From an uncultured Bifidobacteriaceae bacterium (lineage in GTDB: Bacteria; Actinomycetota; Acidimicrobiia; IMCC26256; PALSA-555): a stretch of 64,000 nucleotides of DNA. Under the pieces are notes generated by a model. The model was not told the origin of the DNA. It worked only from the letters and a program-made list of their open reading frames with translations, and searched no databases. Below are positions 5,195-31,271 of this stretch, piece by piece. Made by a program: the position numbers and the translations under genes. The DNA is taken from the NCBI GenBank assembly GCA_964532485.1, contig CAZHKE010000001.1, positions 68,358-132,357 on the forward strand. Direction: 5' to 3'. Position 1 is the stretch's first letter. Each line of letters begins with the position of its first letter.

Positions 5195-5881
5195 GTGCAC
5201 CGTCCGCTCGATGGCAAGCGCGTCGTCGTGACGGGCACCGAGCGCGACTTCGGTCGTGAGCTGCTCGACGGTGTCCTCGGTGGCGGGCCGTCCCACGCCA
5301 GTGGCATCGCGACCAGCGCACTCGAGACTCGGGCGCAGGTCGACGTCCAGCTCGCCGCCGCGGCCGAGCGCGCCCGTGGCCCGGTCGACGTCGTCGTCCA
5401 TGTCGCGATGCCCGAGGTCGCCTTCGAGGCGATCGACTTCGCCGAGGTCGACGACGCGCGCTGGGAAGCGGTGTGGGAGGGCACGATGCGCCCGACGCTG
5501 TTCGTGCTGCAGGCGGCGTTTCGCGAGATGCAGGGTCGAGGCGGCAGCATCGTGCTCGTCACGCCGACGGTCTCGATGTCGGGTGCGGAGCGGCTCGTGC
5601 CGTACACGGTGGCCGTCGAGGGCCAGCGGCTGCTCGCGAAGTCGGCGGCGCGGCAGTGGGGACCTGACGGCATCCGCGTGAACTGCGTCGCGCCCGCGCC
5701 GGAGCACTCCGCCGTCGGTGTCGAGTCGACGGCGGTGTCGCTCGCGCCGCCCGCGCTGGGCGGGCCCGGTGACGTGGTTGCCGACATCGCACCGGTCGTC
5801 GTGTGGCTCGCCAGCGACGCGGCTCACTTCGTGACCGGCGTGACGGTCTGCGCCGACGGCGGCGTCTGGATGGCACCGTGA
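5195..5881 (+). CDS. Degenerate SDR-like protein (probable non-catalytic subunit)
   Basis: 228 aa with SDR fold signatures (VVVTGTERDFG, IRVNCVAP, VTGVTVCADGG). The Gly motif is degraded and the YxxxK Lys is replaced (PYTVAVEG). Its stop overlaps the next SDR start (GTGA). Confidence 0.65.
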   Translation: MHRPLDGKRVVVTGTERDFGRELLDGVLGGGPSHASGIATSALETRAQVDVQLAAAAERARGPVDVVVHVAMPEVAFEAIDFAEVDDARWEAVWEGTMRPTLFVLQAAFREMQGRGGSIVLVTPTVSMSGAERLVPYTVAVEGQRLLAKSAARQWGPDGIRVNCVAPAPEHSAVGVESTAVSLAPPALGGPGDVVADIAPVVVWLASDAAHFVTGVTVCADGGVWMAP

Positions 5882-6675
5882 GCTCGCCTGGTTCTGGTTC
5901 GGGTTCGGGCGGAGACCGTCTCGCGGGCCGAACCGTCGTCGTGACCGGGGCGGGCCAGGGGGTCGGCGAGGGGATCGCGAGGGCGTGCGCCGCCCAGGGG
6001 GCGAACGTCGTGATCGCGGCCCGGCGCGCCGAGACGGGTGAGCCGGTCGCGGCGTCGATCCGTGAGCGCGGCGACGAGGCGGTGTGCATCGTCACCGACG
6101 TCACGAGCCGCGACTCGATGACGGCGTGCGTCGCCGAGACCATCGAACGCTACGGCGGCCTCGAGGTCATGGTGCACAACGCATACCGGGGCGCGGCGCC
6201 GCACCGGCTGGAGGAGCTCGACGTCGAGCTGTGGGACCGGAACTCGCGCACGGCGGTCTGGGGCTCGTACTACAGCGCGGTGCTGGCGTTCCCTCACCTG
6301 CGCGATGCGGGCGCGCGGGGTCGTCTCATCCTCATCACGTCGCCGTCGGGCGTGGAGGGCAGCGTCAACATCCCGATCTACTCGCCGGTCAAGGCGGCGC
6401 AGCGCGCCATGGCCAAGAGCCTGTCGCGGGAGTGGGGGCCGCTCGGGATCACCGTCAACTGCATCGCGCCCGTCGCCGCGAGCCCCGCGCTCATGGGCGC
6501 GTTCGAGCAGAACCCCGTCCTCGAGGAGCGTGTGACGGCACGCACCTCTCTGCGGCGAATCGGCGACCTCGAGCACGACATCGGCCCCGTCGCCGTGTTC
6601 CTCGCGAGTGGCGACGGCGGCTACGTCACCGGCCAGACGATCGTCTGCGACGGTGGCAGCTTCATGGGCCTGTGA
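5878..6675 (+). CDS. Short-chain dehydrogenase/reductase (SDR)
   Basis: In frame with track ORF 5803-6675. GTG 5878 overlaps the upstream stop. Motifs VVVTGAGQGVGEG, HNAY, IYSPVKAAQ (YxxxK), VTGQTIVCDGG. Confidence 0.8.
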   Translation: MSSPGSGSGSGGDRLAGRTVVVTGAGQGVGEGIARACAAQGANVVIAARRAETGEPVAASIRERGDEAVCIVTDVTSRDSMTACVAETIERYGGLEVMVHNAYRGAAPHRLEELDVELWDRNSRTAVWGSYYSAVLAFPHLRDAGARGRLILITSPSGVEGSVNIPIYSPVKAAQRAMAKSLSREWGPLGITVNCIAPVAASPALMGAFEQNPVLEERVTARTSLRRIGDLEHDIGPVAVFLASGDGGYVTGQTIVCDGGSFMGL

Positions 6676-6696
6676 CGGCGCCGGCGCGCTCGGGGG

Positions 6697-8130
6697 TCAG
6701 CGCCGGCCGAGCTCCTCACGGACGGTGCGCCGCAGGATCTTGCCGGTCGCGGTCTGGGGCAGCTCGTCTCGGATGGCGATGGTCTCGGGCGTCTTGAGGC
6801 CGCCGAGGTGCTCGTGCACGTGCGCGCGCAGCTCCGCCTCGTCGGTCGCCGCGCCGGCGCGCAGCGACACCATCGCGACGATGCGCTCGCCCCACTCCTC
6901 GTCCGGCACACCTACGACGGCCGCGGCCCCCACGGCGCGGTGGTGCAGCAGCACGTCCTCGACCTCCGCCGGCGCCACGTTCTCCCCGCCACGGATGATC
7001 GTGTCGTCGCCCCGTCCCTCGACGTAGAGGTAGCCCTCGCCGTCGATGCGACCCTGGTCGCCGGTGTGCAGCCAGCCGTCGCCGTCGCGGTGCGAGCCGC
7101 CGCCCACGTAGCGGCCCGAGACCTGGGCGCCGCGCACGCAGATCTCGCCGATCGAGCCGTCGGTGACCTCGCCGCCGTCGGCGCCGACGATCCGCACCTC
7201 GATGCCGGGGACGGGCCGCCCGACCGACCCCAGCCGGGCACGCGCGGCCGGGTCGTCGCTCGCGGCCGCGGTCCGGTGATCGTCGGGCCCGAGGACGCAG
7301 ACGGTGCTGCTCGTCTCCGTCAGCCCGTACGCGTTCACGAAGCCCGCGTCGGGCAGGAGGTCGAGCGCACGTGCGAGCACGGGCGCGGGCATGCGCGCCC
7401 CGCCGTACACGAGGTGTCGCAGCGTCGACGGGCAGAGGCTCGAATCGGCCTCGAGCGCGTGCACGATGCGCGCCAGCATCGTCGGCACGACGAACGCATG
7501 CGTGACCTGCTCGCGGTTCGCGGTCTCGAGCCAGGCCTCGGGCGTGAATCGCGGCAGCGGCACGATGCGGCGTCCCGCGTACGTCGAGCTCAGCACCGCG
7601 GTGACGCCCGCGATGTGGAACGGCGGGACCGACAGCAGCACGGCCTCGTCGTCGCCGGCCGACGCGAACTCGACGGTGTTGATCTGGTACGCGAGGAGCT
7701 GATCGTGCTCGAGCACGGCAGCCTTCGGCTCCGCCGACGTGCCGCTCGTGAACAGGAGCACGGCCGGGCGCTCGGGCTCGTCGGGGTACGTCTGATCACC
7801 GGCGCCTGTCATCGCGATCCACGACTCGTCGGCGACCACCACCGGCTCGAGCCGGTGCAGCAGCGCGTCGCGAGCCTCGGCGGGCAGCCGGTAGTTGATC
7901 GGCGCGTACGACACGCCCGCCCATGCGGCGCCGAACACGACGGCCGGGACGAGCGGCGACGTCTCGCTGACCAGCGCGACGTCGTCGGCATCGGCGCGGG
8001 CCAGGTGCGCGCCGATCGCGACCGCGCGCTGGCGCAGGTCGGCATACGTCAACCCGCCGTCACGTGGCCCGATGGCGACGCGGTCGCCGAAGCCGTCCGC
8101 GGCGATCTCCAGCAGCATGGCGATGTTCAC
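6697..8130 (-). CDS. Acyl-CoA synthetase / AMP-dependent ligase
   Basis: 477 aa with LLFTSGTSAEPKAAV AMP-binding motif, GYGLTETSS-like LTETSS, and C-terminal GKILRR. The GTG start overlaps the upstream crotonase stop. Confidence 0.85.
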   Translation of the reverse strand: MNIAMLLEIAADGFGDRVAIGPRDGGLTYADLRQRAVAIGAHLARADADDVALVSETSPLVPAVVFGAAWAGVSYAPINYRLPAEARDALLHRLEPVVVADESWIAMTGAGDQTYPDEPERPAVLLFTSGTSAEPKAAVLEHDQLLAYQINTVEFASAGDDEAVLLSVPPFHIAGVTAVLSSTYAGRRIVPLPRFTPEAWLETANREQVTHAFVVPTMLARIVHALEADSSLCPSTLRHLVYGGARMPAPVLARALDLLPDAGFVNAYGLTETSSTVCVLGPDDHRTAAASDDPAARARLGSVGRPVPGIEVRIVGADGGEVTDGSIGEICVRGAQVSGRYVGGGSHRDGDGWLHTGDQGRIDGEGYLYVEGRGDDTIIRGGENVAPAEVEDVLLHHRAVGAAAVVGVPDEEWGERIVAMVSLRAGAATDEAELRAHVHEHLGGLKTPETIAIRDELPQTATGKILRRTVREELGRR

Positions 8131-9167
8131 GTCAGCGACTCCGCGATCTCGAAGGCCCGTGCACGCAGACGATCGTGAGACACGATCTCGTCGACGAGAC
8201 CCCAGTCGCGCGCCTGGTCGACGCCGATCGTACCGTCGCGCAGCAGCAGCGAGAGGACTGCGCGGCGCCCGGCACGGCGAGCGATCGACACGGTCCCGCC
8301 CGCTCCCGGCACGAGGCCGATCGCCTGTTCGGGCAGCCCGATGCGGGTGTCGTCGCTCGCGAGCACGTGATCGGCGAACGCCGCGAGCTCGATGCCCGCG
8401 CCCAGACAGGTCCCGTGGACGGCGACGACGAGTCGCTCGTGCAGCGCGGCGAACCGCCCGGCCGGTGAGCGCAGCAGGCGGACCATGTGGGCGGTCGCCG
8501 GGTCGGGGAACGTCCCGAACTCGTCGAGGTCGCCCCCCGACGAGAACGACGGCCCGTCGCCGCGCACGACGATGCCACCCGAGCTCCAGGTGGCGTCCGC
8601 CAGCGCGGCGTCGAGCGCATCGCGCATCGCGGCGTCGAGGGCGTTGTGGCGGCCCGGGCGCGTCAGCACGATCTCGGTCACGTCGCCGACCGACTCGACG
8701 CGGACTCGCGCGAGATCGGCGTCGTCGGCGGGGCGAGCAGGGGTCGCGTCGCGCCAGGCGCGGAACTCCGGACCCGCCTGCAGCACGGAGTAGACCGCAG
8801 ACTCGGCGTTGAGGCCGTCATCGACGTCGGTGCGCGGTGCCCGTAGCAGCAACGCTGCGCTGACGGCCGCGAGTGGCGCCCGCGCGAACGCGTCCTCGAC
8901 GGCGCGCACGTCGTCGTCGGTCGCGACGACATCGAACGAGCCCTCGATCTCCTCGGGTGGTGAGATCGCGACCGTCAGCGCCGGCACCGCGCGCAGGACG
9001 GCGCGCGACGACGGAGGGACCGACTCGGGCCAGGCGCCCTCGAACCGGACGCACGCTCCCGGCGCCAGTGCGTCACGCAACATGGCGTCGAGCGCGACGC
9101 CCCCGGCCGCGAGGCCGGTGGCATCGACCCGAACGACCGTCGCGTGGGTGGCGGCGGCGCCCTCCAT
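8127..9167 (-). CDS. Enoyl-CoA hydratase/isomerase family protein with an N-terminal degenerate crotonase-like extension
   Basis: 346 aa. The C-terminal roughly 190 aa is crotonase-like (VLTRPGRHNALD, GDGPSFSSGGDL, GTCLGAGIELAAFAD, GLVPGAGGT). The N-terminal roughly 150 aa ends in a crotonase C-terminal-like segment (GLNAESAVYSVLQAGPEFRAW) but has no oxyanion-hole motifs. Confidence 0.75.
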   Translation of the reverse strand: MEGAAATHATVVRVDATGLAAGGVALDAMLRDALAPGACVRFEGAWPESVPPSSRAVLRAVPALTVAISPPEEIEGSFDVVATDDDVRAVEDAFARAPLAAVSAALLLRAPRTDVDDGLNAESAVYSVLQAGPEFRAWRDATPARPADDADLARVRVESVGDVTEIVLTRPGRHNALDAAMRDALDAALADATWSSGGIVVRGDGPSFSSGGDLDEFGTFPDPATAHMVRLLRSPAGRFAALHERLVVAVHGTCLGAGIELAAFADHVLASDDTRIGLPEQAIGLVPGAGGTVSIARRAGRRAVLSLLLRDGTIGVDQARDWGLVDEIVSHDRLRARAFEIAESLT

Positions 9168-9185
9168 CCCTGCCTGGTGCGTGGT

Positions 9186-9329
9186 TCAGTCCGACGACGG
9201 GAGCGGCTTGGCCTGGGCGACCTCCATCGCCTGGCCGTGGCACGAGACCTCGCCGTCGCCCGGCTTCGTGACGAGGACCGTGGCCTCGCACACGCTGCAC
9301 TGGTAGCGCTTGCCCAGCAGGTTCGCCAT
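9186..9329 (-). CDS. 47-aa desulforedoxin-like / zinc-ribbon mini-protein (CxxC...CH variant)
   Basis: Own translation: MANLLGKRYQCSVCEATVLVTKPGDGEVSCHGQAMEVAQAKPLPSSD. AGGA lies 9-12 nt upstream of the ATG. Paralog of the ORF immediately upstream. Below the track length cut-off. Confidence 0.55.
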   Translation of the reverse strand: MANLLGKRYQCSVCEATVLVTKPGDGEVSCHGQAMEVAQAKPLPSSD

Positions 9330-9338
9330 GCGTGCGTC

Positions 9339-9464
9339 CTAGGAGCTCTTGGCGGTCATCGGCTCGTCGCAGCAGACGATCACCTCGTCGGTGCCCTTCA
9401 CGACGATGATCTCGGTCCCGCACTTCGAGCAGCGCAGGCGCGTTCCCACGGCCGTCGGTGCCAT
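9339..9464 (-). CDS. 41-aa desulforedoxin-like mini-protein (CxxCG...VCC.EPM)
   Basis: Own translation: MAPTAVGTRLRCSKCGTEIIVVKGTDEVIVCCDEPMTAKSS. Cys spacing matches the desulforedoxin / desulfoferrodoxin N-terminal domain as I recall it. No strong SD. Confidence 0.55.
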   Translation of the reverse strand: MAPTAVGTRLRCSKCGTEIIVVKGTDEVIVCCDEPMTAKSS

Positions 9465-9483
9465 GCGGTCAGACTATCGCCGC

Positions 9484-10371
9484 ATGTCTTCCGGACCTGA
9501 AGCCCGATCCGACGGGCCCGACCCGGACGTCGCGCCGGACATCGACGTCCCGGCCCTCACCGACATCCGGTTCGAGGTCCGGGACCACGTCGCCGTCGTG
9601 ACCCTCGACCGGCCCGACCAGCGGAACGCGTTCACGGGGGCGATGGGCGACAGCCTGGGCCGGTTGCACGCGCACTGCGACACCGACGACGACATCCGCG
9701 TGGTCGTGGTGACCGGCGCGGGTGACGCGTTCTGCGCCGGGGCCGACCTCACGCCCGGGGGCGCGACGTTCGCGGCTCCGGGCGAGCGGGCTGGAGGCGC
9801 CGAGGCGTTCACGTCGTCGCCGATCCGGCCGACCGCGTGGCAGATCCGCAAGCCCGTGCTCGCGGCGATGAACGGGCACGCGATCGGCATCGGCATGACG
9901 CTCGCCATGCACTGCGACGTCCGCTTCATGGCGACCGGCGCGAAGTACGGCTTCGTCCACAACCGGCGCGGCGTCCTGCCCGACGCGCACTCGCACTGGA
10001 CGGTGCCGCGGGCGGTCGGGTTCGCGCGAGCCGCCGACCTGCTGCTGTCAGGCAGGCACTTCACCGCCGAGGAGGCGTTCGCCATGGGCCTCGCGGCGCG
10101 TGCGCTCCCCGCCGACGAGGTGCTGCCGGCCACGCTCGAGTACGCCCGCGACCTCGCCGTCAACACCGCACCGCTGTCGATCGCGCTGTCGAAGCGGCTG
10201 CTCTGGCACCAGCCCACGCTGGACGCCGACGAGTGCGACCGGCTCGAGACCGCGTACCACCGCGTCGTCATGGGTCGCGACGACGCCCGTGAAGGCGTGC
10301 TGGCGTTCCTCGAGCGCCGCGACCCCGAATGGTCGCTGAGCCCGACCCGCGACTGGCCCGAGGAGCCTTGA
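9484..10371 (+). CDS. Enoyl-CoA hydratase/isomerase (crotonase)
   Basis: In frame with track ORF 9349-10371. ATG 9484 (MSSGPEARSD...) avoids overlap with the divergent mini-ORFs. Motifs VVTLDRPDQRNAF, VVVVTGAGDAFCAGADL, MNGHAIGIGMTLAMHCD. Confidence 0.85.
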   Translation: MSSGPEARSDGPDPDVAPDIDVPALTDIRFEVRDHVAVVTLDRPDQRNAFTGAMGDSLGRLHAHCDTDDDIRVVVVTGAGDAFCAGADLTPGGATFAAPGERAGGAEAFTSSPIRPTAWQIRKPVLAAMNGHAIGIGMTLAMHCDVRFMATGAKYGFVHNRRGVLPDAHSHWTVPRAVGFARAADLLLSGRHFTAEEAFAMGLAARALPADEVLPATLEYARDLAVNTAPLSIALSKRLLWHQPTLDADECDRLETAYHRVVMGRDDAREGVLAFLERRDPEWSLSPTRDWPEEP

Positions 10372-10435: not shown

Positions 10436-11548
10436 TCAGGCCCAGGGGACACCCTCGCCGGGGGACTCGAGGCCGAGCATGTCGGCGAGGACGCGGGTGA
10501 CGGCGTTGTTCTCGGCCATGTCGGTGTCGGGGGGCATGAGCTCGAAGTCGACGAGCAGGTGCTTGAGCCGCATCATCACGACGGCGAACCGCAGGCCGCC
10601 GAAGATCTCGTAGAGCTCCAGATCGCGGGCGGCCCGGCCGCTGGTCTGCTCGTAGCGATCGACCATCTCCTCACGAGTCGGGAAGCCAACCAGGCGCGGC
10701 GCGGGCATGCCCTCGTGGAAGTGACGGTCGAGGAACAGCCACCATCCGAGGTCCATCATCGGATCGGCGAGGGTCACCATCTCCCAGTCGACGACGGCGC
10801 GCACGTGGTGGTCGGGACCGAAGAGCTGGTTGTTGATCCGCGCGTCACCCCAGCACAGCCCGATCTCGGGGTCCTCGGCCGGCGCGTTCTCGCGCACCCA
10901 CTCGAGCGCGGCCTTCGCGATCCGAGGTGGCTCCGATCCCGGGTCGGCCCACTCGTACGACGCCTCGTAGTACCGCAGCTGTTGCTCGAAACCGAGCTTC
11001 CCGTACTGCGGCTTGTCGAGGAACTCGAAGCCGAGTGCCCGCCAGTCGACGGCGTGCACGGCCGCGAGCGCATCGAGCCCGCTCTCGACGAGCGTCCTCC
11101 GGTCGGCGGGCGTCGTCTCCTCGAAGAACCAGCCGCCGAGGGTGTAGGGCGGTGTGTCGGTCGGCGCCCGCCCGTCGACCTTGTCCATCACGAAGAACGG
11201 CGCGCCGAGGTGCTCGTCGCTCTCCTCGAACCACCGCATGGTGGGAACGGGAACGTCCGTCTTCGCCCCGAGCGTCTCCAGCACCCGGTACTGCGACTCG
11301 AAGTCGGCTTCCAGGAAGACCGTGTGCTGGGTCGGCTTCACGCGCAGCACGAGGCCCTCGGTGCGCCGGGTGCCCGCGGCGTCGGTGCAGCGGGCGTCGA
11401 ACAGCAGGGTCTCGTTGGAGAAGCCGGTGAACGCGGGGCCGGAGAGCTCGCCGACCTCCACGTCCCTCACATCGGGCAGCCGCTCCGCCAGCCAGCTCGC
11501 GATGATGCCGCGGGTCTTCTCGAGATCGCGCTGCTCGGGGATCGGCAC
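10436..11548 (-). CDS. Phosphotransferase (APH/choline-kinase-like) family protein
   Basis: 370 aa with FFVMDKVDG, catalytic-loop-like LCWGDARINNQLF, and VVDWEM. Confidence 0.75.
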   Translation of the reverse strand: MPIPEQRDLEKTRGIIASWLAERLPDVRDVEVGELSGPAFTGFSNETLLFDARCTDAAGTRRTEGLVLRVKPTQHTVFLEADFESQYRVLETLGAKTDVPVPTMRWFEESDEHLGAPFFVMDKVDGRAPTDTPPYTLGGWFFEETTPADRRTLVESGLDALAAVHAVDWRALGFEFLDKPQYGKLGFEQQLRYYEASYEWADPGSEPPRIAKAALEWVRENAPAEDPEIGLCWGDARINNQLFGPDHHVRAVVDWEMVTLADPMMDLGWWLFLDRHFHEGMPAPRLVGFPTREEMVDRYEQTSGRAARDLELYEIFGGLRFAVVMMRLKHLLVDFELMPPDTDMAENNAVTRVLADMLGLESPGEGVPWA

Positions 11549-11651: not shown

Positions 11652-12802
11652 CTAGATCACGACACCCATGGCGACGAGGCCAGCCACCTCGTCGCGCGAC
11701 AGGCCCCACGCCTCGAGGACGTGCGTCTCGCGTTCGCCGGCGTGCTCGGGCGGTGCCGGGTCGGCCAACGGCGTGCCCGAGAAGCGCGGCGCGGGCGCGG
11801 GTTGAGGAACGCCCCGGATCTCACGGAACGTCGCGCGCGCCCGATTGTGCGGGTGCGATGGCGCCTCGACCGGGTCGAGGACCGGTGCCACGCACGCGTC
11901 GAAGTCGGCGAAGTGCTGCTCCCACTCGTCGCGGGTTCGCGTCCGGATCACCGTGGCGAACCGCTCGCGCAGCTCGGGCCATCCGTCACGGTCGTGCTGC
12001 TCGGGGAGGTCCTCGCCCGCGAGCTCGAGCCCTTCGAGGAGCTGCGCGTAGAACTGCGGCTCGATCGCGCCGACGGCGAGCCACCGGCCGTCGCTGGTCT
12101 CGTAGCTGTCGTACCAGGGCGAGCCCGTGTCGAGCATGTTCGTGCCCCGCGGTCCCCAGAACCCCGACGCGCGCGCCGCGTAGAACGGGGTCAGCATCAC
12201 CGCCGCGCCGTCGACCATCGCCGCGTCGACGACCTGCCCCTGACCGGTGTGCTCGCGCGCGAGGAGCGCCGCGACGATTCCGTACGCGAGCAGCATCCCG
12301 CCGCCCGCGAAGTCGGCGAGCACGTTGATCGGTGGCGTCGGCGGTGCGCCCGCGCGGCCGAGCGGCTCCAGTGCCCCGGCGATCGCGAGGTAGTCGAGAT
12401 CGTGGCCGGCCCTGTCGGCGAGCGGGCCGTCCTGGCCGTACCCGGTCAGTCGCCCGTACACCAGGCGCGGGTTGCGGCCGCGCGCGACGTCGGGGCCGAT
12501 GCCGAGGCGCTCCGCGACTCCCGGGCGGAACACCTCGAACACGGCGTCGGCTGCATCGGTGAGGCGCAGGAACGTCTCGACGCCGCTCGGTGCCTTGAGG
12601 TCGAGCCCGATCGCGGCCTTCGATCGGTACATCGCGTTCGTCGCCGGCGTGGAGGCGTCGATCGCGCGCACCGCGTCGACGCGGTCGACGCGCAGCACCT
12701 CGGCGCCGAGGTCGGCGAGCAGCATCCCGCAGAAGGGACCGGGCCCCAGCCCCAGGAGCTCGACGACCCGCACACCCTCGAGCGGCCCGCCTCGCCCGAG
12801 GC

Positions 12803-12806
<4 letters not shown>
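11652..12806 (-). CDS. mcr: Alpha-methylacyl-CoA racemase (family III CoA-transferase fold)
   Basis: 384 aa with GVRVVELLGLGPGPFCGMLLADLGAEVLRVDR, GQVVDAAMVDG, AVGAIEPQFYA, PAPRFS. These blocks match my recollection of M. tuberculosis Mcr (Rv1143). Confidence 0.8.
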
Positions 12807-14735
<1,929 letters not shown>

Positions 14736-16472: not shown

Positions 16473-18098
16473 CTAGGTGCTCGCGGTCGCCGTGGTCGCG
16501 ACCTGCTGGGCCCACCGGTAGTCGGGCTTCCCCGACGGCGAGCGTTGGATCGACGCGACGAAGTGCAGCTCGCGCGGCACCTTGAAGCCGGCGATGACGC
16601 CGCGGCAATGCTCCTGGATCGACTCGAGCGTCGGCTCCGCCGACTCACGCGGCTGCACCACCGCGACGACGCGCTGACCCCAGCGGTTGTCCTTCACGCC
16701 CACGACGACGCAGTCGTACACGTCGGGATGCCCCTTGACCGCGCCCTCGACCTCCTCGGGAAAGATCTTCTCGCCGCCCGAGTTGATCGATACGGAGCCC
16801 CGGCCGAGCAGCGTGATCGTGCCGTCGGCGTCCATCGTCGCGGAGTCGCCGGGGATCGCGTAGCGCACACCTTGCCTGTCGGTCACGAACGTCTCGGCGG
16901 TCTTCGCGGGGTCCTTGTAGTACTCGAGGGGGATGTTCCCTCGACGCGCGACCCGGCCGATCACCTCGGAGCCGGCTTCGACGATCTCGAGGTTCTCGTC
17001 GAGGACGACCGTGTCGGCGATCGGGGTCACCGTCGGACCGCCCTTCATCGCCGTCTTCCCCTTCCGGACGAGCGTGTAGCCGTTGGACCCGCTCTCCGAG
17101 GCGCCGATCGCCTCGGAGAGGATCAGGTCGGGGAAGCGCTCGAGGAACTCGTCCTTCACGCTCGGAGAGAACAGCGCCGCGGTGCTCGAGAGCGACACCC
17201 ACGACGAGAGGTCGAGCGCCTGCACCTCGGGGTCGTCGAGTGCCTCCAGCAACGGGCGCGCCATGGCATCGCCCGTGATCATCATCGCGTGCACCCCTTC
17301 GGCGGCCACGAGCCTCCAGACCTCGACCGGATCGAACTTCGGGACGAGGCAGATCTTGTTCCCGATCAGCGCGCCGCCCATGACGCCCCACTGCGTCGCG
17401 CCGTGCATCAGCGGGGCGATCGGCAGCATCACGGCCTGCGTAGCGTTGGTGAGTCCCTTCTCGACCATCGCCTCGGGCCGGTCGACCTTCACGCCGGTCA
17501 CGACGTCGATCCCACCACCCAGGGCGAAGAACACGTCCTCTTGGCGCCAGACGACGCCCTTGGGCATGCCGGTCGTCCCCCCCGTGTAGAGGATGTAGCG
17601 GTCGTCGGGGGAGCGGGGCCCGAAGTCGCGCTCGGGGGACGCACCCGCGAGCGCGTCCTCATAGGCCACCGACCCCAGCTGCGAGACGTCGGCGCCGGAG
17701 CCGTCGTCGATCACGACCGAGTGGGTGAGCAGCGGGAGCCGGTCGAGGACGCCCTGCGCCCGGGGGCCGAACTCTCGCTGGTACACGAGCGCCTTCAGGT
17801 CGGCGTTGTCGAACAGGTACGCGAGCTCGTCCTCCACGTAGCGGTAGTTGATGTTGACCCACACGGCCCGCAGCTTGAAGACGGCCCAGAGGGTCTCGAC
17901 CCACTCGACGGAGTTGAGGGCGTAGATCCCCACGTGGTCACCGGGGCCGATGCCGTGCGCCGCCAGGTGGTGGGCGAGGCGGTTCGCCCGCTCTTCCATC
18001 TCCGCGTACGTGCGGCGCTTGCCGGCGCACACGAGGTACTCGCGGTCGCCGAAGTGATCGACCGAGTTCTCGAACATGTCCGCGAGGTTGAATTCCAT
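16473..18098 (-). CDS. Acyl-CoA synthetase (FadD-like)
   Basis: ATG at 18098 gives MEFNLADMFENSVDHFGDREYLV...YILYTGGTTGMPKGVVWRQEDV. 541 aa. The upstream part of track ORF 16473-18563 is Arg/Gly-rich junk overlapping the next gene. Confidence 0.85.
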   Translation of the reverse strand: MEFNLADMFENSVDHFGDREYLVCAGKRRTYAEMEERANRLAHHLAAHGIGPGDHVGIYALNSVEWVETLWAVFKLRAVWVNINYRYVEDELAYLFDNADLKALVYQREFGPRAQGVLDRLPLLTHSVVIDDGSGADVSQLGSVAYEDALAGASPERDFGPRSPDDRYILYTGGTTGMPKGVVWRQEDVFFALGGGIDVVTGVKVDRPEAMVEKGLTNATQAVMLPIAPLMHGATQWGVMGGALIGNKICLVPKFDPVEVWRLVAAEGVHAMMITGDAMARPLLEALDDPEVQALDLSSWVSLSSTAALFSPSVKDEFLERFPDLILSEAIGASESGSNGYTLVRKGKTAMKGGPTVTPIADTVVLDENLEIVEAGSEVIGRVARRGNIPLEYYKDPAKTAETFVTDRQGVRYAIPGDSATMDADGTITLLGRGSVSINSGGEKIFPEEVEGAVKGHPDVYDCVVVGVKDNRWGQRVVAVVQPRESAEPTLESIQEHCRGVIAGFKVPRELHFVASIQRSPSGKPDYRWAQQVATTATAST

Positions 18099-18118
18099 GG
18101 TCTTCGAACGGTAGCGGC

Positions 18119-19144
18119 TCAGGTGGTGAGGTCCGCGAGGACGCGCAGCGCCTGCTCGTCCTGGCCGCCGACGAGCAGCGTCGTGACGGGCGTCGCGCGC
18201 CAGGCCTCGAGCCGCTCGGCGATCCGCTCCTTCGGCCCGACGAGCGAGATCTCGTCGGCGAACGCCTCGGGGACGGCCATGATCGCCTCGTCGCGCTTGC
18301 CCGCGAAGAACAGGTCCTGGACCTTGAAGGCCTCGTCCTCGTACCCCATTCGGGCCATGAGCTCGGTGTGGAAGTTCTTGCTCCTCGCGCCCATGCCGCC
18401 GATGTAGAACCCGAGCGCGGCCTTCACCGGCCAGAGGGCGACGCTCACGTCGTCGGCAACGCTCACCGACACGTTCACCGCGATCTCGAAGCCGGGCTCG
18501 GCGTGCGCGATCTGCTCGTCGTAGACCTCGGGCCGGTACGGCGAGTAGTACAGGGGCACCCACCCGTCGGCGATCTCGGCCGCGAGCGCGACGTTCTTCG
18601 GGCCCTCGGCGCCGAGGTAGATCGGGATGTCGCTCCGCCGTGGGTGCGTGATCATCTTCAGCGGCTTCCCGAGGCCGAGCGCGTCGTCACCCGCGTAGGG
18701 GAGCGGGTAGTGGGGGCCGGCGCTCTCGACCGGCTCCTCCCGGGCGAGAGCGTCGCGGATGATCTGGACGTACTCGCGGGTGCGCGCGAGCGGCTTGCCG
18801 AAGGGCCGGCCGTACCAGCCCTCGACGACCTGGGGACCGCTGACACCGATGCCGAGGCACGCGCGCCCTTCGGACAGCCCGTCGAGCGTCATGGCGTGCA
18901 TCGCCATGGTCGTGGGTGACCGTGCCGACATCTGCGCGATGCCGGTGCAGAGCTTGAGACGCGACGTCGCGGCCGCGACCGCGGCGAGTGGCGAGAACGC
19001 GTCCGAGCTCCACGACTCGCCGGTCCAGATCGAGTCGAAGCCGAGATCCTCGGCGAGGGTGGCCGACTCGACGAGCTCGCGTGCCGAGCGCGGCTGCGCG
19101 GTCCAGTAGCCCATCTGCAGCCCGAGCTTGAGGTCCTGTGCCAC
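18119..19144 (-). CDS. LLM-class (luciferase-like) F420/flavin-dependent oxidoreductase
   Basis: 341 aa with LGFDSIWTGESW, LGIGVSGPQVVEGWYG, IPIYLGAEGPKN. GTG start. Confidence 0.8.
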   Translation of the reverse strand: MAQDLKLGLQMGYWTAQPRSARELVESATLAEDLGFDSIWTGESWSSDAFSPLAAVAAATSRLKLCTGIAQMSARSPTTMAMHAMTLDGLSEGRACLGIGVSGPQVVEGWYGRPFGKPLARTREYVQIIRDALAREEPVESAGPHYPLPYAGDDALGLGKPLKMITHPRRSDIPIYLGAEGPKNVALAAEIADGWVPLYYSPYRPEVYDEQIAHAEPGFEIAVNVSVSVADDVSVALWPVKAALGFYIGGMGARSKNFHTELMARMGYEDEAFKVQDLFFAGKRDEAIMAVPEAFADEISLVGPKERIAERLEAWRATPVTTLLVGGQDEQALRVLADLTT

Positions 19145-19210: not shown

Positions 19211-20467
19211 TCAAGGGGAGGAGAACGGGACGTCGCGGTCGAGTCGGGGCTCGGCGGGGAGTCCGAGCGCGCGCTCGCCGATCATCGTGCGGTGGATCTC
19301 GTCGGTGCCGCCACCGATGCTCGCCCAGAACCGGTTGAGCAGGAGCGTCTGCCAGAACCCGCCGCGAACCGCGTCCGCACCGGTGAGCATCCCGGCCGCG
19401 CCCAGCAGCGCGAACGCCAGCTGGCCCTTGGCAGCGCGATCGAGCGACCAGAGGACCTTCAGGACCGAGCCGTCGATCGTCGGGCGCCGGCCGGCAAGCA
19501 GCTCGGACTGCACCCGGTCGCGCAACCAGCGCAGCGCGTGCTCGCGCGACCACACCTCGGCGAGGCGCTGTCGCGTCACCGGATCGCCCGCGCGGTCGCG
19601 CTCCTGCGCGAGCGCGATCAGCGCGGCCGCGTCCGATCCGACCGCGGCGGAGCTGCCGATGAGCGCGGACTCGTTCGCCAGCGTCGTGCGGGTCGGGCCC
19701 CAGCCGCGGTCGATCGCCCCGACGACGTTGGCGATCGGCACCCGCACGTCGGTGAGGAACACCTCGTTGAAGTGCGCGGCACCGGTGATCTGGCGCAGCG
19801 GCCGGACGTCGATGCCGGGCGTCGTCATGTCGACGATCAGGTAGGTGATGCCGCGGTGCTTGGGCGCGCTCGGCTCGGTGCGCACGAGCAGGATCGCGAG
19901 GTCGGCATGCCGTGCGCCCGAGGTCCAGACCTTCTGGCCGTTCACGACCAGCACGTCCCCACCGTCCGGGGAGGTGGCGCGCTGCGCGCCCGTCCGGAGG
20001 CTCGCGAGGTCGGAGCCCGCGCCGGGCTCGCTGAACAGCTGGCACCACACCTCGTCGCCGCGCAGCAACGGCCGGAGGTAGCGCGCGCACTGCGCCGGCG
20101 TGCCGTGTGCGAGCAGCGTGGGCCCCACGAGCGCGATCGTCGAGGCGAGGAAGCCCGACGACACGTCGAAGCGAGCCTGCTCCTGGTTGAACGCGACCGC
20201 CTCTGCGGGTGTGGCGCCGCGTCCGCCGTGCTCGACGGGCCAGGTGATGCCGGCCCAGCCGCCGTCGAAGAGCGTCCGCTGCCACGTCCGGCAGCGCTCG
20301 AAGTGCTCGGACTCCGCTTCCCAGCTCGCGTCGCGGGGACCGTTCGACCAGTCGCTCGCGCCGCGTCGCACCTGGGCGTGCTGGGCGAGCCAGGCCCGGG
20401 CCTCGGCCCGAAACGACGCCAGGTCGAGCGTCTCCGGCTCCGGTCGTGCGAGGTCGGCCGCCGCCAC
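19211..20467 (-). CDS. Acyl-CoA dehydrogenase
   Basis: 418 aa with typical ACAD blocks (WCQLFSEPGAGSDLASL, VVNGQKVWTSGA, ITYLIVDM, GGTDEIHRTMIGERALGLP). Confidence 0.85.
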   Translation of the reverse strand: MAAADLARPEPETLDLASFRAEARAWLAQHAQVRRGASDWSNGPRDASWEAESEHFERCRTWQRTLFDGGWAGITWPVEHGGRGATPAEAVAFNQEQARFDVSSGFLASTIALVGPTLLAHGTPAQCARYLRPLLRGDEVWCQLFSEPGAGSDLASLRTGAQRATSPDGGDVLVVNGQKVWTSGARHADLAILLVRTEPSAPKHRGITYLIVDMTTPGIDVRPLRQITGAAHFNEVFLTDVRVPIANVVGAIDRGWGPTRTTLANESALIGSSAAVGSDAAALIALAQERDRAGDPVTRQRLAEVWSREHALRWLRDRVQSELLAGRRPTIDGSVLKVLWSLDRAAKGQLAFALLGAAGMLTGADAVRGGFWQTLLLNRFWASIGGGTDEIHRTMIGERALGLPAEPRLDRDVPFSSP

Positions 20468-20544: not shown

Positions 20545-21669
20545 ATGACCGACTTCAGCGCGGCGATGTCCGCGCGCATCACCGAGTTCGACGGTCGGAC
20601 GCCGCTCCAGGCGCTCGCCGAGGGCGGTGGCACGCACGAGACGAGGTTGACGTCGCTCGAGCGCTTCCCGTACTACCGATCGTTCCCGTTCGCGTGGTAC
20701 TTCGCCGCGTTCTCCGACCACGTCGGCGTCGGCGAGGTTCGCACCGCGCACTGGCTGGCGCGCGACCTCGTGATCTGGCGCGGCGAGGACGGCGCCGCGC
20801 ACGTGATGGAGGCGTACTGCCCGCACATGGGCGCGCATCTCGGGTACGGCGGGCGCGTCGAGGGCTCTCACCTCGTGTGCCCGTTCCACTGGTGGGAGTA
20901 CGACGGCGACGGCACCAACGTGCGCATCCCCTACGCCGACAAGCCCAACGGCAGGGCGCGGGTGCGCTCGTACCCCACCATCGACCGCAACGGGCTCATC
21001 ATGTTCTGGTACCACCCGGCTGGTGATCCGCCGGTGTGGGAGGTGCCGGAGATCCCCGAGCTCTCCGACCCGTGCTGGCGCGACGAGTTCCGCGCCGAGT
21101 GGGACGTGCGCTGCCCGTGGCAGGAGATGGCCGAGAACGGGCCCGACTACGTGCACCTCAAGACCGTGCACGGCGCCGCGTCGGTGCCCGAGGTCGAGAG
21201 CCTCACGTACGAGGGACCGTTCAGCCACCTCCGCTCGAAGGTCAGCTTCTCGACGCCGCGAGGTCCACAGGAGGGTCGCATCGACACGGACTCGTGGGGT
21301 CCCGGGTTCGCGATCGCACGCTTCTCGGGGATCACGCCGACGCTCTTCGTGAACCTCACGACCCCGATCGACTGGGAGATGACGCGCTCCATCAAGCTCT
21401 ACCGAGTCGAACGGCGCGGCGAGTCCGACGCGGACCGCTCGCGGGTGCAGCGCGTCGGCGAGGCGCTCGTGCGCGACCTCCGCAAGCAGATGGATGAGGA
21501 CGTCGTGATCTTCGACCACAAGATCTGGGTCGACCCGCCCGCGCTCGCCCCCGACGACGGCCCGATCATCCGGTTCCGGAAGTGGGCTGCTCAGTTCTAC
21601 GTCGAGGGCGATCCGCGCGCCGCGGACCGATGGGACGGCGACCGAAGTGGCCGGACGGTGCGCACGTGA
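20545..21669 (+). CDS. Rieske [2Fe-2S] monooxygenase, KshA-like oxygenase component
   Basis: 374 aa with Rieske ligands CPHMGAHL...CPFHWWEYDGDG. The C-terminal DEDVVIFDHKIW...DGPIIRFRKWAAQFYVEG resembles the KshA tail as I recall it. Confidence 0.75.
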   Translation: MTDFSAAMSARITEFDGRTPLQALAEGGGTHETRLTSLERFPYYRSFPFAWYFAAFSDHVGVGEVRTAHWLARDLVIWRGEDGAAHVMEAYCPHMGAHLGYGGRVEGSHLVCPFHWWEYDGDGTNVRIPYADKPNGRARVRSYPTIDRNGLIMFWYHPAGDPPVWEVPEIPELSDPCWRDEFRAEWDVRCPWQEMAENGPDYVHLKTVHGAASVPEVESLTYEGPFSHLRSKVSFSTPRGPQEGRIDTDSWGPGFAIARFSGITPTLFVNLTTPIDWEMTRSIKLYRVERRGESDADRSRVQRVGEALVRDLRKQMDEDVVIFDHKIWVDPPALAPDDGPIIRFRKWAAQFYVEGDPRAADRWDGDRSGRTVRT

Positions 21670-27431: not shown

Positions 27432-28061
27432 TCAGGACGTCCGGACCCAGGTGTCGCGCGACAGGATCCGCCAGCCGGCTCCCCGGTCGAGGAACCGCGC
27501 CACGTCGGCGGCGACGACGCGCCGACCCTCGTCGCTGTCGTAGAAGCGTTCGCGGAGGTCGGCTACGGAGCGGAACCGCATCTCGGCGACCCCGTCGACT
27601 TCGGGTGCCTCGGCGGTCAGCGGCTCGAGCACGACGTTCTGCGCGTAGTGCCAGAAGGCGGGGTGGTGCCGGCGCACGATCGGCGTGTGGTGCTCGGTCC
27701 AATGGGCTGCCATCTGGGCGCGGGTGAGCGACGGCAGGCGGCGCAGGAACACGAGGCGGCAGAGCCCGGGAGGCTGGTCACCGTCGGACGGGCGCAGGCC
27801 GGCGTCGATCTGCACGTGCTCGTCGACGCGGTAGGCGTCCACGCGCCCGCCGAGCGCCCAGCCCCCGATCGTTGCCGCATCGGGCTCCTCGTCGCACCAC
27901 GCGACCACCACCGCGTGCAGGCCGTCGGGCTGCTCGGCCGGCTCGTCGGGGTGCGGACGGTGCACGACGATCCGCGACGCAGGGAGCGCGCGCAACGCGT
28001 CGAGGTCCGGGTCGGCGCCGAGAACCACGCCCACCACCTTGATGCTCTCGCCCGCCGTCAC
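27432..28061 (-). CDS. EthD-domain protein
   Basis: 209 aa. The C-terminal half LTRAQMAAHWTEHHTPIVRRHHP...YAQN...DSDEGRRVVAADVARF is typical of EthD. Confidence 0.6.
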   Translation of the reverse strand: MTAGESIKVVGVVLGADPDLDALRALPASRIVVHRPHPDEPAEQPDGLHAVVVAWCDEEPDAATIGGWALGGRVDAYRVDEHVQIDAGLRPSDGDQPPGLCRLVFLRRLPSLTRAQMAAHWTEHHTPIVRRHHPAFWHYAQNVVLEPLTAEAPEVDGVAEMRFRSVADLRERFYDSDEGRRVVAADVARFLDRGAGWRILSRDTWVRTS

Positions 28062-29867: not shown

Positions 29868-31271
29868 TCAGCCGCCGGTGAGCTCGGTGGGCTCGATGCC
29901 GAGGTAGCGCTCGAGGTTGCGGTGGAGGCTCTCGATGCGCATCTCCTCGCGCGACAGCGTGAGGTGGGTGAACCCGGGCTGGTGGAGCCCTCGCTGCGCT
30001 CGCTGGAGGTTCTCGACGTCCTGGTTGAACACGACGCCGAGGTCCGCGGTCTCGGCGTCCATGGTCACGTCGACCGGTCGGTCGCGGGGCGCATCCCGTG
30101 GGACACGCGAGAAGTAGAGGAGATCCATCAGGCAGTCGTCGGGTGTCGCGCCGGGACGCATCCGGAGCAGGGCGAGGCTCTCGGCCAGGAACACCGGTGA
30201 GATGTTGGGGAAGCAGTTGTACTGGTGGAGGTCGGTGACCTGCTCGTCGGTGAAGTCGTCGAGGTCGACGCCCAGCTCGACGGCGCGCTCGCGGATGAGC
30301 CGCGCCAGCAGGGTGCGCATCGACTCGCCGGGCTCGCGCTCGGGCACCGGTCCCGGGTCGCCGCCGCTCGGTCGACCCACGCGCTCGCCCTGCGTCGCGC
30401 AGAACGACTCCCAGATCTGTTGATCGGACGCTCCGTCGCGCAGGCGCGGGCTCGGGATCCCGTAGGGCTGGTTGAGCCGGCCGTGCCGCTCCCACACCTC
30501 CTGCGGACCGTTCACGTCGTCGGTCGACGGGATCATCTGCCGGTGGATGCCCTGCACGTGGTACGTCTCGCTGAACGCGTCGATGCCCGTCTTCCAGTTG
30601 CACGCCAGCGGCACGGTCACGATGGCGCGGCACGCGAACTCGTCGGTGCGCAGCCACGCCGTCTCGGCGGGCACGGGAGCAAGGAAGTCGCCGAGGGGCT
30701 CGGCGTCGAGGTCGAGGTTCACGAAGACCATCGGGCCCCAGGTGTCGACCTGCACCGCGCGCAGTGCGTAGTCGTCGTTCTCGATGACGCCGAAGCCCTT
30801 GCGCGACGGGACCTCGCGGAGCCGGCCGCCGAGATCCCAGCACCAGCGGTGGTACACGCAGCGGATCTCGGTGCGACCGGTGCCGGCGCCGTTGCACAGC
30901 TCGTTGCCGCGGTGCAAGCACACGTTCTGGAACGCCCGTAGCTCGCCGTCGTCGCCCCGCACGATCAGCACCGACAGCGGCCCGCACGTGTACTCGAACC
31001 AGTCGCCGGGGTCGCGCACGTGGTCGACGCTGCACGCCACCTGCCAGACGTGGGGCCAGAGGTGCTCGGTCTCGAGCGCGGCCCACTCGGGGGACGTGTA
31101 GCGCGACGCCGGCACGAGCACGGGCCTGCGCCGGTCGCTCACCGTCCCGATCGTGGAGCCGACCGGTGCCTCCTCCGTCACCTCGCCCGCGTAGGCAGGG
31201 CCGCCCGGTCGGGCATCTCGGATCCTGACCTCGCGGGTCCGGGGCGCCGGGGCCTGGGTCACGGGGTGCAC
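29868..31271 (-). CDS. Rieske [2Fe-2S] oxygenase, alpha-subunit-like
   Basis: 467 aa with CLHRGNEL...CVYHRWCWDLGG. The catalytic domain contains H..H-type motifs (YHVQGIH). GTG start at 31271; exact start uncertain. Confidence 0.8.
   Translation of the reverse strand: MHPVTQAPAPRTREVRIRDARPGGPAYAGEVTEEAPVGSTIGTVSDRRRPVLVPASRYTSPEWAALETEHLWPHVWQVACSVDHVRDPGDWFEYTCGPLSVLIVRGDDGELRAFQNVCLHRGNELCNGAGTGRTEIRCVYHRWCWDLGGRLREVPSRKGFGVIENDDYALRAVQVDTWGPMVFVNLDLDAEPLGDFLAPVPAETAWLRTDEFACRAIVTVPLACNWKTGIDAFSETYHVQGIHRQMIPSTDDVNGPQEVWERHGRLNQPYGIPSPRLRDGASDQQIWESFCATQGERVGRPSGGDPGPVPEREPGESMRTLLARLIRERAVELGVDLDDFTDEQVTDLHQYNCFPNISPVFLAESLALLRMRPGATPDDCLMDLLYFSRVPRDAPRDRPVDVTMDAETADLGVVFNQDVENLQRAQRGLHQPGFTHLTLSREEMRIESLHRNLERYLGIEPTELTGG

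Follow-up and report, generated by a model that had tools for sequence, protein, structure and literature searches.

What are two cysteine-rich mini-proteins of the desulforedoxin (Dx) type doing at the head of an operon for acyl-CoA enzymes? The question is raised by a 64,000-nucleotide stretch of contig CAZHKE010000001.1 (positions 68,358 to 132,357 of the forward strand, from an assembly labelled as an uncultured Bifidobacteriaceae bacterium), here referred to as the window, in which two tandem minus-strand open reading frames (ORFs), ORF1 and ORF2, precede the genes for a crotonase-containing protein and an acyl-CoA ligase (Table 1). An initial annotation of the window described both ORFs as Dx-like and offered two hypotheses, namely that they are small proteins that carry electrons to the P450 and to both Rieske oxygenases encoded in the same window, or that they are zinc-ribbon subunits of a hydratase/ligase complex. 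The best explanation that we can offer, and a tentative one, is that the pair is a non-redox accessory or regulatory partner of a CoA-activating enzyme or enzyme complex, with a C-terminal tail that engages a site on this partner and a metal that is structural in the lineage of the window.

ORF1 and ORF2 are genuine genes under purifying selection. On re-reading, their positions and sequences, the 9 nt between them, the 18 nt from the ORF2 stop codon to the crotonase-containing gene (9167..8127) and the 4-nt overlap of the latter with the ligase gene (8130..6697) were exactly as first reported, and both ORFs do lie under the 60-residue default of the ORF list that was used. Their supposed invisibility holds for that list only, as public gene callers already call both, and some database sources label the products 'desulfoferrodoxin-like iron-binding protein' while others have 'hypothetical'. 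The N-terminal extension of the plus-strand ORF at 9349-10371 was rightly judged to be spurious, its orthologues being called at 279-288 residues; the overlap of this ORF with ORF1 is an artefact, because the first TTG was taken as its start and the real start is the ATG at 9484. Conserved frames and purifying selection, which had been proposed as a check on the mini-genes, are both found. Across 56 paired loci, picked with a regular expression that contained the tail motif of ORF2, both frames are unbroken in every case, with a gap between them of -11 to +16 nt. The median ratio of non-synonymous to synonymous substitution rates (dN/dS, Nei-Gojobori) is 0.22 for ORF2 and 0.29 for the ORF1 core, and the GC content at third codon positions (GC3) is 0.955 and 0.889, respectively, which is the coding signature of high-GC genomes. 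Conservation, dN/dS and GC3 rule out chance ORFs.

The assignment of the two products to the desulforedoxin / Desulfoferrod_N family has also stood up. With the Pfam model PF06397 (Desulfoferrod_N), which has a gathering cut-off of 23, the scores are 26.2 bits for ORF1 and 24.9 bits for ORF2, and the two reach 18-20 bits with NCBIfam TIGR00319, below its cut-off of 36. Their nearest solved relatives by profile are desulfoferrodoxin (Dfx) and desulforedoxin, with the ligand cysteines aligned and an E-value of about 0.004. The rubredoxin profile gave no Pfam match at E <= 1, and the two residues of the second ligand pair stand side by side (CC or CH), unlike those of a CxxC. ORF2 was initially taken to be a paralogue of ORF1 with CH in place of CC, and comparison of the two profiles bears this out (hhalign probability 96%, E = 3.5e-9). 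The ligand patterns are invariant in Acidimicrobiia-type loci, where all 48 distinct ORF1 sequences have CxxC..CC and all 52 distinct ORF2 sequences have CxxC..CH; CxxC..CC is likewise invariant in 16 ORF1 homologues, and Binatia homologues carry CC at the second ligand pair. An AlphaFold2 (AF2) model of P0018, a natural fusion of the two proteins, contains two small beta-ribbon domains (predicted local distance difference test, pLDDT, 71-82) connected by a disordered linker. The overall pLDDT is 68, probably because the alignment informed the N-terminal half only; MAFFT had stacked ORF1 homologues onto the ORF2 half. When this model was searched with Foldseek, an appreciable probability was obtained only for 1DXG (target TM-score 0.79, 36% identity), 2JI2 and 1DFX.

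Comparison of loci shows that the two proteins belong together. A word-indexed search returned 16 clusters for ORF1 (61-98% identity) and more than 130 for ORF2 (74-94%), a scan of one genome per species found a relative of ORF2 encoded in at least 527 species genomes, with distant homologues partly biased towards tail carriers by one of its two retrieval patterns, which contained the tail, and an exhaustive HMMER search gave 947 clusters at 50% identity. Its members come from Acidimicrobiia, Frankia, Rhodococcus, Streptomyces, Sphingobium, Binatia and proteobacteria. Wherever an actinobacterial metagenome-assembled genome locus includes the upstream DNA, ORF1 is found immediately before ORF2, and the two are joined in frame as natural fusions in P0017, P0018 and Frankia. 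Many representatives of 80-120 residues have two matched stretches with the ORF2-type domain at the extreme C-terminus, and cultured Rhodococcus, Sphingobium and Streptomyces encode fused forms of 96-102 residues. Binatia operons contain one tailed copy (47 residues) and one tail-less copy (39 residues). Desulforedoxin is a homodimer of two 36-residue ribbons, which the tandem or fused pair parallels, and a Dx-like heterodimer of ORF1 and ORF2 is therefore the natural inference. Two candidate fusions of a Dx domain to an enzyme, P0342 (352 residues) and P0369 (400 residues), were rejected, as they result from frameshifts by which ORF2 is read on into the crotonase-fusion gene; P0357 is an unrelated repeat protein. 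Several loci titled 'uncultured Bifidobacteriaceae' or 'Bifidobacterium breve' (L004, L009, L054 and L056) carry a high-GC operon of the Acidimicrobiia type with 74-91% ORF2 identity; their taxonomic labels are probably wrong, or the contigs mis-binned.

The most conserved element of the family, across several phyla and as judged from alignments, is not the metal site but the tail with which ORF2 ends, ...AKPLPSSD-COOH. An alignment of 30 homologues shows no variation at six of the seven positions of KPLPSSD and at least 90% conservation at the remaining one, S46. The same heptapeptide, or a version with one change, is found in Frankia, Rhodococcus, Binatia, proteobacteria, Sphingobium and Streptomyces, where the body of the protein is only 44-60% identical; single-position variants occur in P0128, L050/L054, Sphingobium, Streptomyces N50 and R. 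qingshengii, and the tail is more variable in remote low-GC members (KPIPGSD, KPISTSD). A GKRY motif and a TK-G-G strand are kept alongside it. In the AF2 model of P0018 the tail is predicted to be disordered (pLDDT <50).

The metal ligands have a different history. The cysteines of the ORF1 half are lost in Frankia fusions, the tailed half is without ligand cysteines in P0292, P0334 and P0356, and the fused proteins of five cultured strains and of Streptomyces N50 have 2-4 cysteines and no CxxC..CC. All of these retain the tail, and they also retain the ligase or transferase neighbour wherever the context is known. Ligand-free members have kept GKRY and the TKAG-G strand as well. The sequences thus show the ligands to be dispensable across the family and, because ligand-free lineages keep both tail and synteny, the metal is not its conserved function.

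What does stay constant is the neighbour. That the mini-ORFs head a crotonase/ligase operon, as the initial annotation had proposed, is seen in the window and in related loci. Among 81 non-redundant genome loci, 33 have a crotonase gene as the next one after the tailed ORF (27 of these being of the fusion type found in the window), 27 have the ligase and 3 have a class-III CoA-transferase; in the remainder some other gene comes next (13) or the contig ends (5). Where a crotonase comes first and there is room downstream, a ligase is next in 16/25 loci, and the 'other' cases include Amidohydro_3 followed by crotonase and ligase, in Binataceae-type loci, and one fragmentary ligase ORF. In all five annotated plasmid loci of cultured strains, the tailed protein has either a fatty-acid-CoA ligase or a CaiB/BaiF pair immediately after it; a crotonase follows in the plasmid loci of Rhodococcus sp. 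BH4 and R. qingshengii, and in the latter also an SDR. Counts over 54 full-length related loci gave a ligase in 40, a class-III CoA-transferase in 20, a P450 within 6 kb in 7 and a Rieske protein within 6 kb in none, and many loci consist of the pair and the ligase alone, without a redox enzyme. The constant neighbour is thus an enzyme that activates carboxylates, be it an ANL ligase or class-III CoA-transferases, and crotonases usually accompany it. Amidohydrolases also recur by the tailed gene, with Amidohydro_3 directly downstream in the Binataceae-type loci L073, L075 and L078 (~6170-7930), an amidohydrolase family gene in Sphingobium (L087, 9753-11030) and Amidohydro_2 in Frankia (L064, 9032-10204); they may be relevant if the tail is covalently modified.

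The expression signals of the pair are also shared between loci, and from them the ORF1 mRNA is predicted to be leaderless. A TANNNT hexamer starts 12-13 nt before the ORF1 start codon in 54/56 loci, compared with none of 1680 background positions in these upstream regions, and that start codon is ATG in 56/56. In mycobacteria the -10 motif is YANNNT, usually with a G before it, transcripts with a 5' untranslated region of 0-3 nt are translated efficiently, and 25-38% of primary transcription start sites are leaderless (PMC8022548). The spacing of the -10 box therefore places the transcription start on the ORF1 ATG. A Shine-Dalgarno (SD)-like GAGG, GGAG or AGGA is present at -16..-7 of ORF2 in 54/56 loci, against 14% in the background; as it usually lies within the final codons of ORF1, translation of ORF2 is probably coupled to that of ORF1. 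A scan of 6400-10000 for sigma-70 consensus promoters and intrinsic terminators found none, and it was by comparison across loci that the actinobacterial promoter, which has a -10 element only, was recognised. An Rfam scan of 8900-9800 gave chance-level matches only and no RNA element. The start codons of ORF1 (9464, minus) and of the divergent crotonase gene (9484, plus) are separated by a 19-nt spacer (9465-9483), and so both divergent promoters must overlap the coding region of the neighbour; the spacer length recurs in the gene calls of L001-L003 and the upstream sequences of L009 and L011. Its sequence, GCGGCGATAGTCTGACCGC, recurs in L001, L002/L011 and L009, and L003/L019 have a GTG-type divergent start. 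Loci with the pair and the ligase only (L005, L012, L022, L026, L027, L030 and similar) show a conserved CGACTGGCC-like motif at about -45 to -35 from ORF1, 5' of the -10 box, which may be a -35 element or the operator of a regulator. The tail, the ORF1-ORF2 fusions, the leaderless promoter and the place of the ligase, rather than the crotonase fusion, as the steadiest neighbour had all been overlooked in the initial annotation.

How, then, might such a pair work? In the explanation that we favour, ORF1 and ORF2 would function as a single unit, which is a heterodimer in this lineage and one chain with two domains in others, made from an mRNA that would start at the ORF1 ATG, with ORF2 translated in a coupled manner. 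The metal sites, Cys4 in ORF1 and Cys3His in ORF2, would be structural in the lineage of the window. The function of the unit would be bound up with the enzyme that makes a CoA thioester from a free carboxylic acid (an ANL ligase here, in other loci class-III CoA-transferases) and with the crotonases that come next. The globular pair may bind this enzyme or an enzyme complex, upon which the flexible and invariant tail of ORF2 would reach a site on the partner. Physical binding, the target of the tail and the nature of the metal, zinc or iron, are what we infer. By analogy, the pair would serve as a subunit that is accessory or regulatory rather than catalytic, comparable to the MbtH-like partners of adenylation domains, which are also small non-catalytic proteins, encoded beside adenylate-forming enzymes and sometimes fused or duplicated. 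The likeness does not extend to sequence or fold, as there is no PF03621 match at E <= 1, no Trp triad and no fold relation; the partners here are FACL/MenE-like ligases and sometimes CoA-transferases, and the invariant tail has no MbtH counterpart. The second of the earlier hypotheses, a zinc-ribbon subunit of the hydratase/ligase complex, fares well in its general direction, that of a non-redox partner of CoA enzymes. Its analogy with DUF35 does not hold. DUF35 proteins (BbsA, the C-terminal domain of ChsH2 and the archaeal thiolase/HMG-CoA synthase scaffold) are likewise small zinc-ribbon proteins serving acyl-CoA enzymes of the beta-oxidation type, but the 41- and 47-residue proteins have neither an OB fold nor a DUF35 Pfam match, their partner is not an SCP-x thiolase, and in Rhodococcus and Sphingobium loci (L086, L087) DUF35 and thiolase pairs are present as separate genes.

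Several points weigh against this explanation. An invariant docking tail sits uneasily with a simple subunit model when the enzyme beside it changes fold (ANL ligase, class-III CoA-transferase, crotonase), and a role like that of a substrate, or as a carrier, would suit it better. None of the eight ligands varies in the lineage of the window, so that the metal matters there, and a redox role of the Fe(Cys)4-type site of ORF1 is conceivable. Remote low-GC members are found in unrelated neighbourhoods or on short contigs. The invariance of the tail in distant matches is partly by construction, because the retrieval pattern and the locus regular expression contained it, although matches retrieved without tail-based selection, those of the word-indexed and HMMER searches among them, show the same conservation. 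Finally, the fusion model is of moderate confidence only (pLDDT 68), and its match to 1DXG has an E-value of 3.6, Foldseek E-values being non-significant for so small a domain.

The strongest alternative, though in our view an unlikely one, takes the tail as its starting point and regards the tailed protein as a covalent carrier or substrate resembling LysW or the precursor of a ribosomally synthesised and post-translationally modified peptide (RiPP). The ligase or CoA-transferase would act on the C-terminal Asp of ...KPLPSSD, or would load an acyl or amino compound on the tail, and downstream enzymes would work on the tethered or CoA-activated group. An exact C-terminus that is invariant across phyla while the body diverges is the pattern of the tails of LysW, ThiS/MoaD, Pup and ubiquitin, and the predicted disorder of the tail fits such a role. 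LysW itself is of about 50 residues, with a small metal-ribbon globule and a flexible, strictly conserved acidic C-terminal tail, and it too is encoded in an operon with a carboxylate-activating enzyme; the globular part of the mini-proteins is a similarly tiny metal ribbon, with weak matches to LysW (Pfam E = 0.04, PDB E = 1.2). Two non-homologous, isofunctional families of carboxylate-activating enzymes swap directly after the tailed gene, and amidohydrolases recur nearby in the Binataceae-type, Sphingobium and Frankia loci. An Asp-ended peptide is, moreover, a 2-amido-succinate, and from what is established of Bbs-type substituted-succinate beta-oxidation the nearby gene set (a CoA-transferase pair, acyl-CoA dehydrogenase (ACAD), crotonase, SDR pair and thiolase) appears to resemble it. 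Yet the hallmarks of LysW are missing, with KPLPSSD in place of EDWGE, an ANL ligase or class-III CoA-transferase in place of the ATP-grasp LysX, and a PF21344 score of 14 bits against a cut-off of 27. We know of no ANL ligase or class-III CoA-transferase that acts on a protein C-terminus. The crotonases, ACADs and thiolases of these loci resemble ordinary small-molecule acyl-CoA enzymes, with conserved catalytic glutamates in place, and the clusters are typical catabolic islands. The fullest version, in which the tailed mini-protein is a new protein-based carrier or substrate whose C-terminal Asp is activated or anchors the intermediate while enzymes of the beta-oxidation type act on the protein-linked group, we consider more doubtful still.

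Two further readings are weaker than this one. That the pair is a regulatory device, either a metal- or redox-sensing switch, an anti-repressor or an attenuator of the leader-peptide type that controls the expression or activity of the downstream operon, is improbable. Its place as the first item of the operon on a leaderless mRNA, its cysteine-rich sequences, the TetR, GntR and MarR regulators near several loci and the diverse contexts of remote members would all be in keeping with such a device, but attenuator peptides are not conserved as folded domains, and this pair passes a Pfam domain model, is under purifying selection over its whole length and exists in stable two-domain fusions. Neither a signature of DNA or RNA binding nor an Rfam element is present, and the ligand-free variants speak against metal or redox sensing as the common function. 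Least probable of all is the electron-carrier hypothesis of the initial annotation, by which Fe centres of the Dx or rubredoxin type would feed the P450 (3968-5185), the Rieske oxygenases (20545-21669, 29868-31271) or another redox enzyme of the pathway. The Dx-type ligand pattern that is invariant in the lineage of the window, the membership of PF06397 and a P450 only 3-4 kb away in the closest loci are consistent with it, as is the lack of any recognised ferredoxin or reductase in a non-exhaustive motif scan of the window and among the ORFs tested. The survey of neighbours goes against it, with ligases and CoA-transferases as the usual company and P450 or Rieske genes in so few of the 54 loci; many loci have just the pair and the ligase, and ligand-free members, including Frankia without the ORF1 cysteines, keep the synteny. 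The Cys3His site of ORF2 is of a kind more typical of zinc, and the redox partners of actinobacterial P450 and KshA proteins are commonly encoded elsewhere in the genome, as those of the oxygenases in the window may also be. Desulfovibrio gigas Dx (1DXG) and the N-terminal domain of desulfoferrodoxin are of the same sequence family as the pair, and the CxxC...CC spacing aligns residue for residue with Dx, the best fold match. The pair differs from them, however, in being probably a heterodimer of diverged paralogues, one of them with Cys3His and an invariant 7-residue tail, in its hosts (aerobic Actinomycetota, Binatia and proteobacteria, not sulfate reducers), in its linkage to CoA ligases, CoA-transferases and crotonases rather than to genes of oxygen detoxification, and in the existence of whole lineages without ligands, and it remains well under the TIGR00319 cut-off.

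Table 1. Genes and sequence elements of the window, with positions counted from its first nucleotide
Feature	Position	Strand	Remarks
ORF1	9464..9339	minus	41 aa + stop, MAPTAVGTRLRCSKCGTEIIVVKGTDEVIVCCDEPMTAKSS; tail-less desulforedoxin-fold mini-protein; ligands C12, C15, C31, C32
ORF2	9329..9186	minus	47 aa + stop, MANLLGKRYQCSVCEATVLVTKPGDGEVSCHGQAMEVAQAKPLPSSD; tailed desulforedoxin-fold mini-protein; ligands C11, C14, C30, H31
C-terminal tail K-P-L-P-S-S-D-COOH	9189..9209	minus	ORF2 codons 41-47; near-invariant among members
-10 hexamer TAGTCT	9471..9476	minus	at -12..-7 from the A of the ORF1 ATG
SD-like AGGA	9337..9340	minus	overlaps the ORF1 stop codon, 8-11 nt before the ORF2 ATG
346-aa crotonase-containing protein	8127..9167	minus	N-terminal domain (residues 1-150) + crotonase core
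ANL-family acyl-CoA ligase, 477 aa	6697..8130	minus	AMP-binding + AMP-binding_C domains; steadiest neighbour of the pair
Divergent full-length crotonase, 295 aa from ATG 9484	9484..10371	plus	ECH_1 164 bits; 19 nt from the ORF1 start
P450	3968-5185		window gene
Tandem SDRs	5195-6675		window genes
APH-family kinase	10436-11548		window gene
Class-III CoA-transferase	11652-12806		window gene
4HBT thioesterase	12803-13468		window gene; weak RHA1_ro05818-like N-terminus
Thiolase	13377-14735		window gene
Second AMP-binding ligase	16473-18563	minus	696 aa as called; ~160 residues ahead of the AMP-binding domain
ACAD	19211-20467		window gene
KshA-like Rieske protein	20545-21669		window gene
EthD protein	27432-28061		window gene
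Ring-hydroxylating alpha subunit (Rieske)	29868-31271		window gene

The enzymes beside the pair have features of their own. In the 346-residue protein, ECH_1 positions 5-190 of 251 are matched at residues 162-345 and the usual C-terminal helices are absent; its AF2 model is of high quality (pLDDT 94.7), the C-terminal 200 residues form a canonical crotonase (Foldseek, about 200 columns) and the catalytic residues E260 and E280 are invariant. No relative of its N-terminal domain (8718-9167, minus; pLDDT >94) was found in Pfam, the PDB or crotonase profiles. The idea of a circularly permuted crotonase, in which the N-terminal 150 residues would be the displaced C-terminal helices, was rejected, hhalign giving a probability of 0.2% with a crotonase profile and the PDB profile search nothing below E = 1. 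A fusion of this type comes after the mini-ORF pair in some 27 loci, and the divergent crotonase gene is found in most of the loci of this type. The ANL ligase has 8WEU and 8WEV (the latter deposited as feruloyl-CoA synthetase) as its nearest solved relatives (E = 2e-56 to 4e-56), followed by MenE, and in most loci its orthologues (58-80% identity) come straight after the pair or next to the fusion gene that stands behind it. The additional residues ahead of the AMP-binding domain of the second ligase are either an N-terminal extension or the result of an over-long ORF call. By its gene content the window looks like a catabolic island for steroids, alicyclic or aromatic acids.

The sequence family and the fold are therefore known ones, those of desulforedoxin. 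What appear to be new are the pairing, the Cys3His paralogue, the tail, the loss of ligands and the link to CoA enzymes; in the searchable literature we found no paper on the two-domain or heterodimeric organisation, the Cys3His paralogue, the tail, the ligand-free lineages or the CoA ligase/transferase link.

The family, with some 950 clusters from at least 527 species, has at present no annotation beyond 'hypothetical' or 'desulfoferrodoxin-like', and the name 'desulfoferrodoxin' misleads in that it implies a function in oxygen stress or redox chemistry. The genes show tight linkage to the first committed step in many acyl-CoA pathways of catabolism. The occurrence of metal-containing and metal-free versions of one mini-protein parallels the C+ and C- forms of ribosomal proteins. 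Should the carrier reading be true, logic like that of LysW would have moved into acyl-CoA metabolism, or C-terminal tailoring of the RiPP kind would be at work. Cultured strains with these genes exist, among them R. rhodochrous GD02, R. qingshengii 7B and Sphingobium sp. RAC03, which makes the question directly tractable. If these ligases and transferases depend on the pair as an obligate partner, failed expression of such enzymes on their own would be explained, and the pair would be a missing component for models of steroid, alicyclic and aromatic acid degradation.

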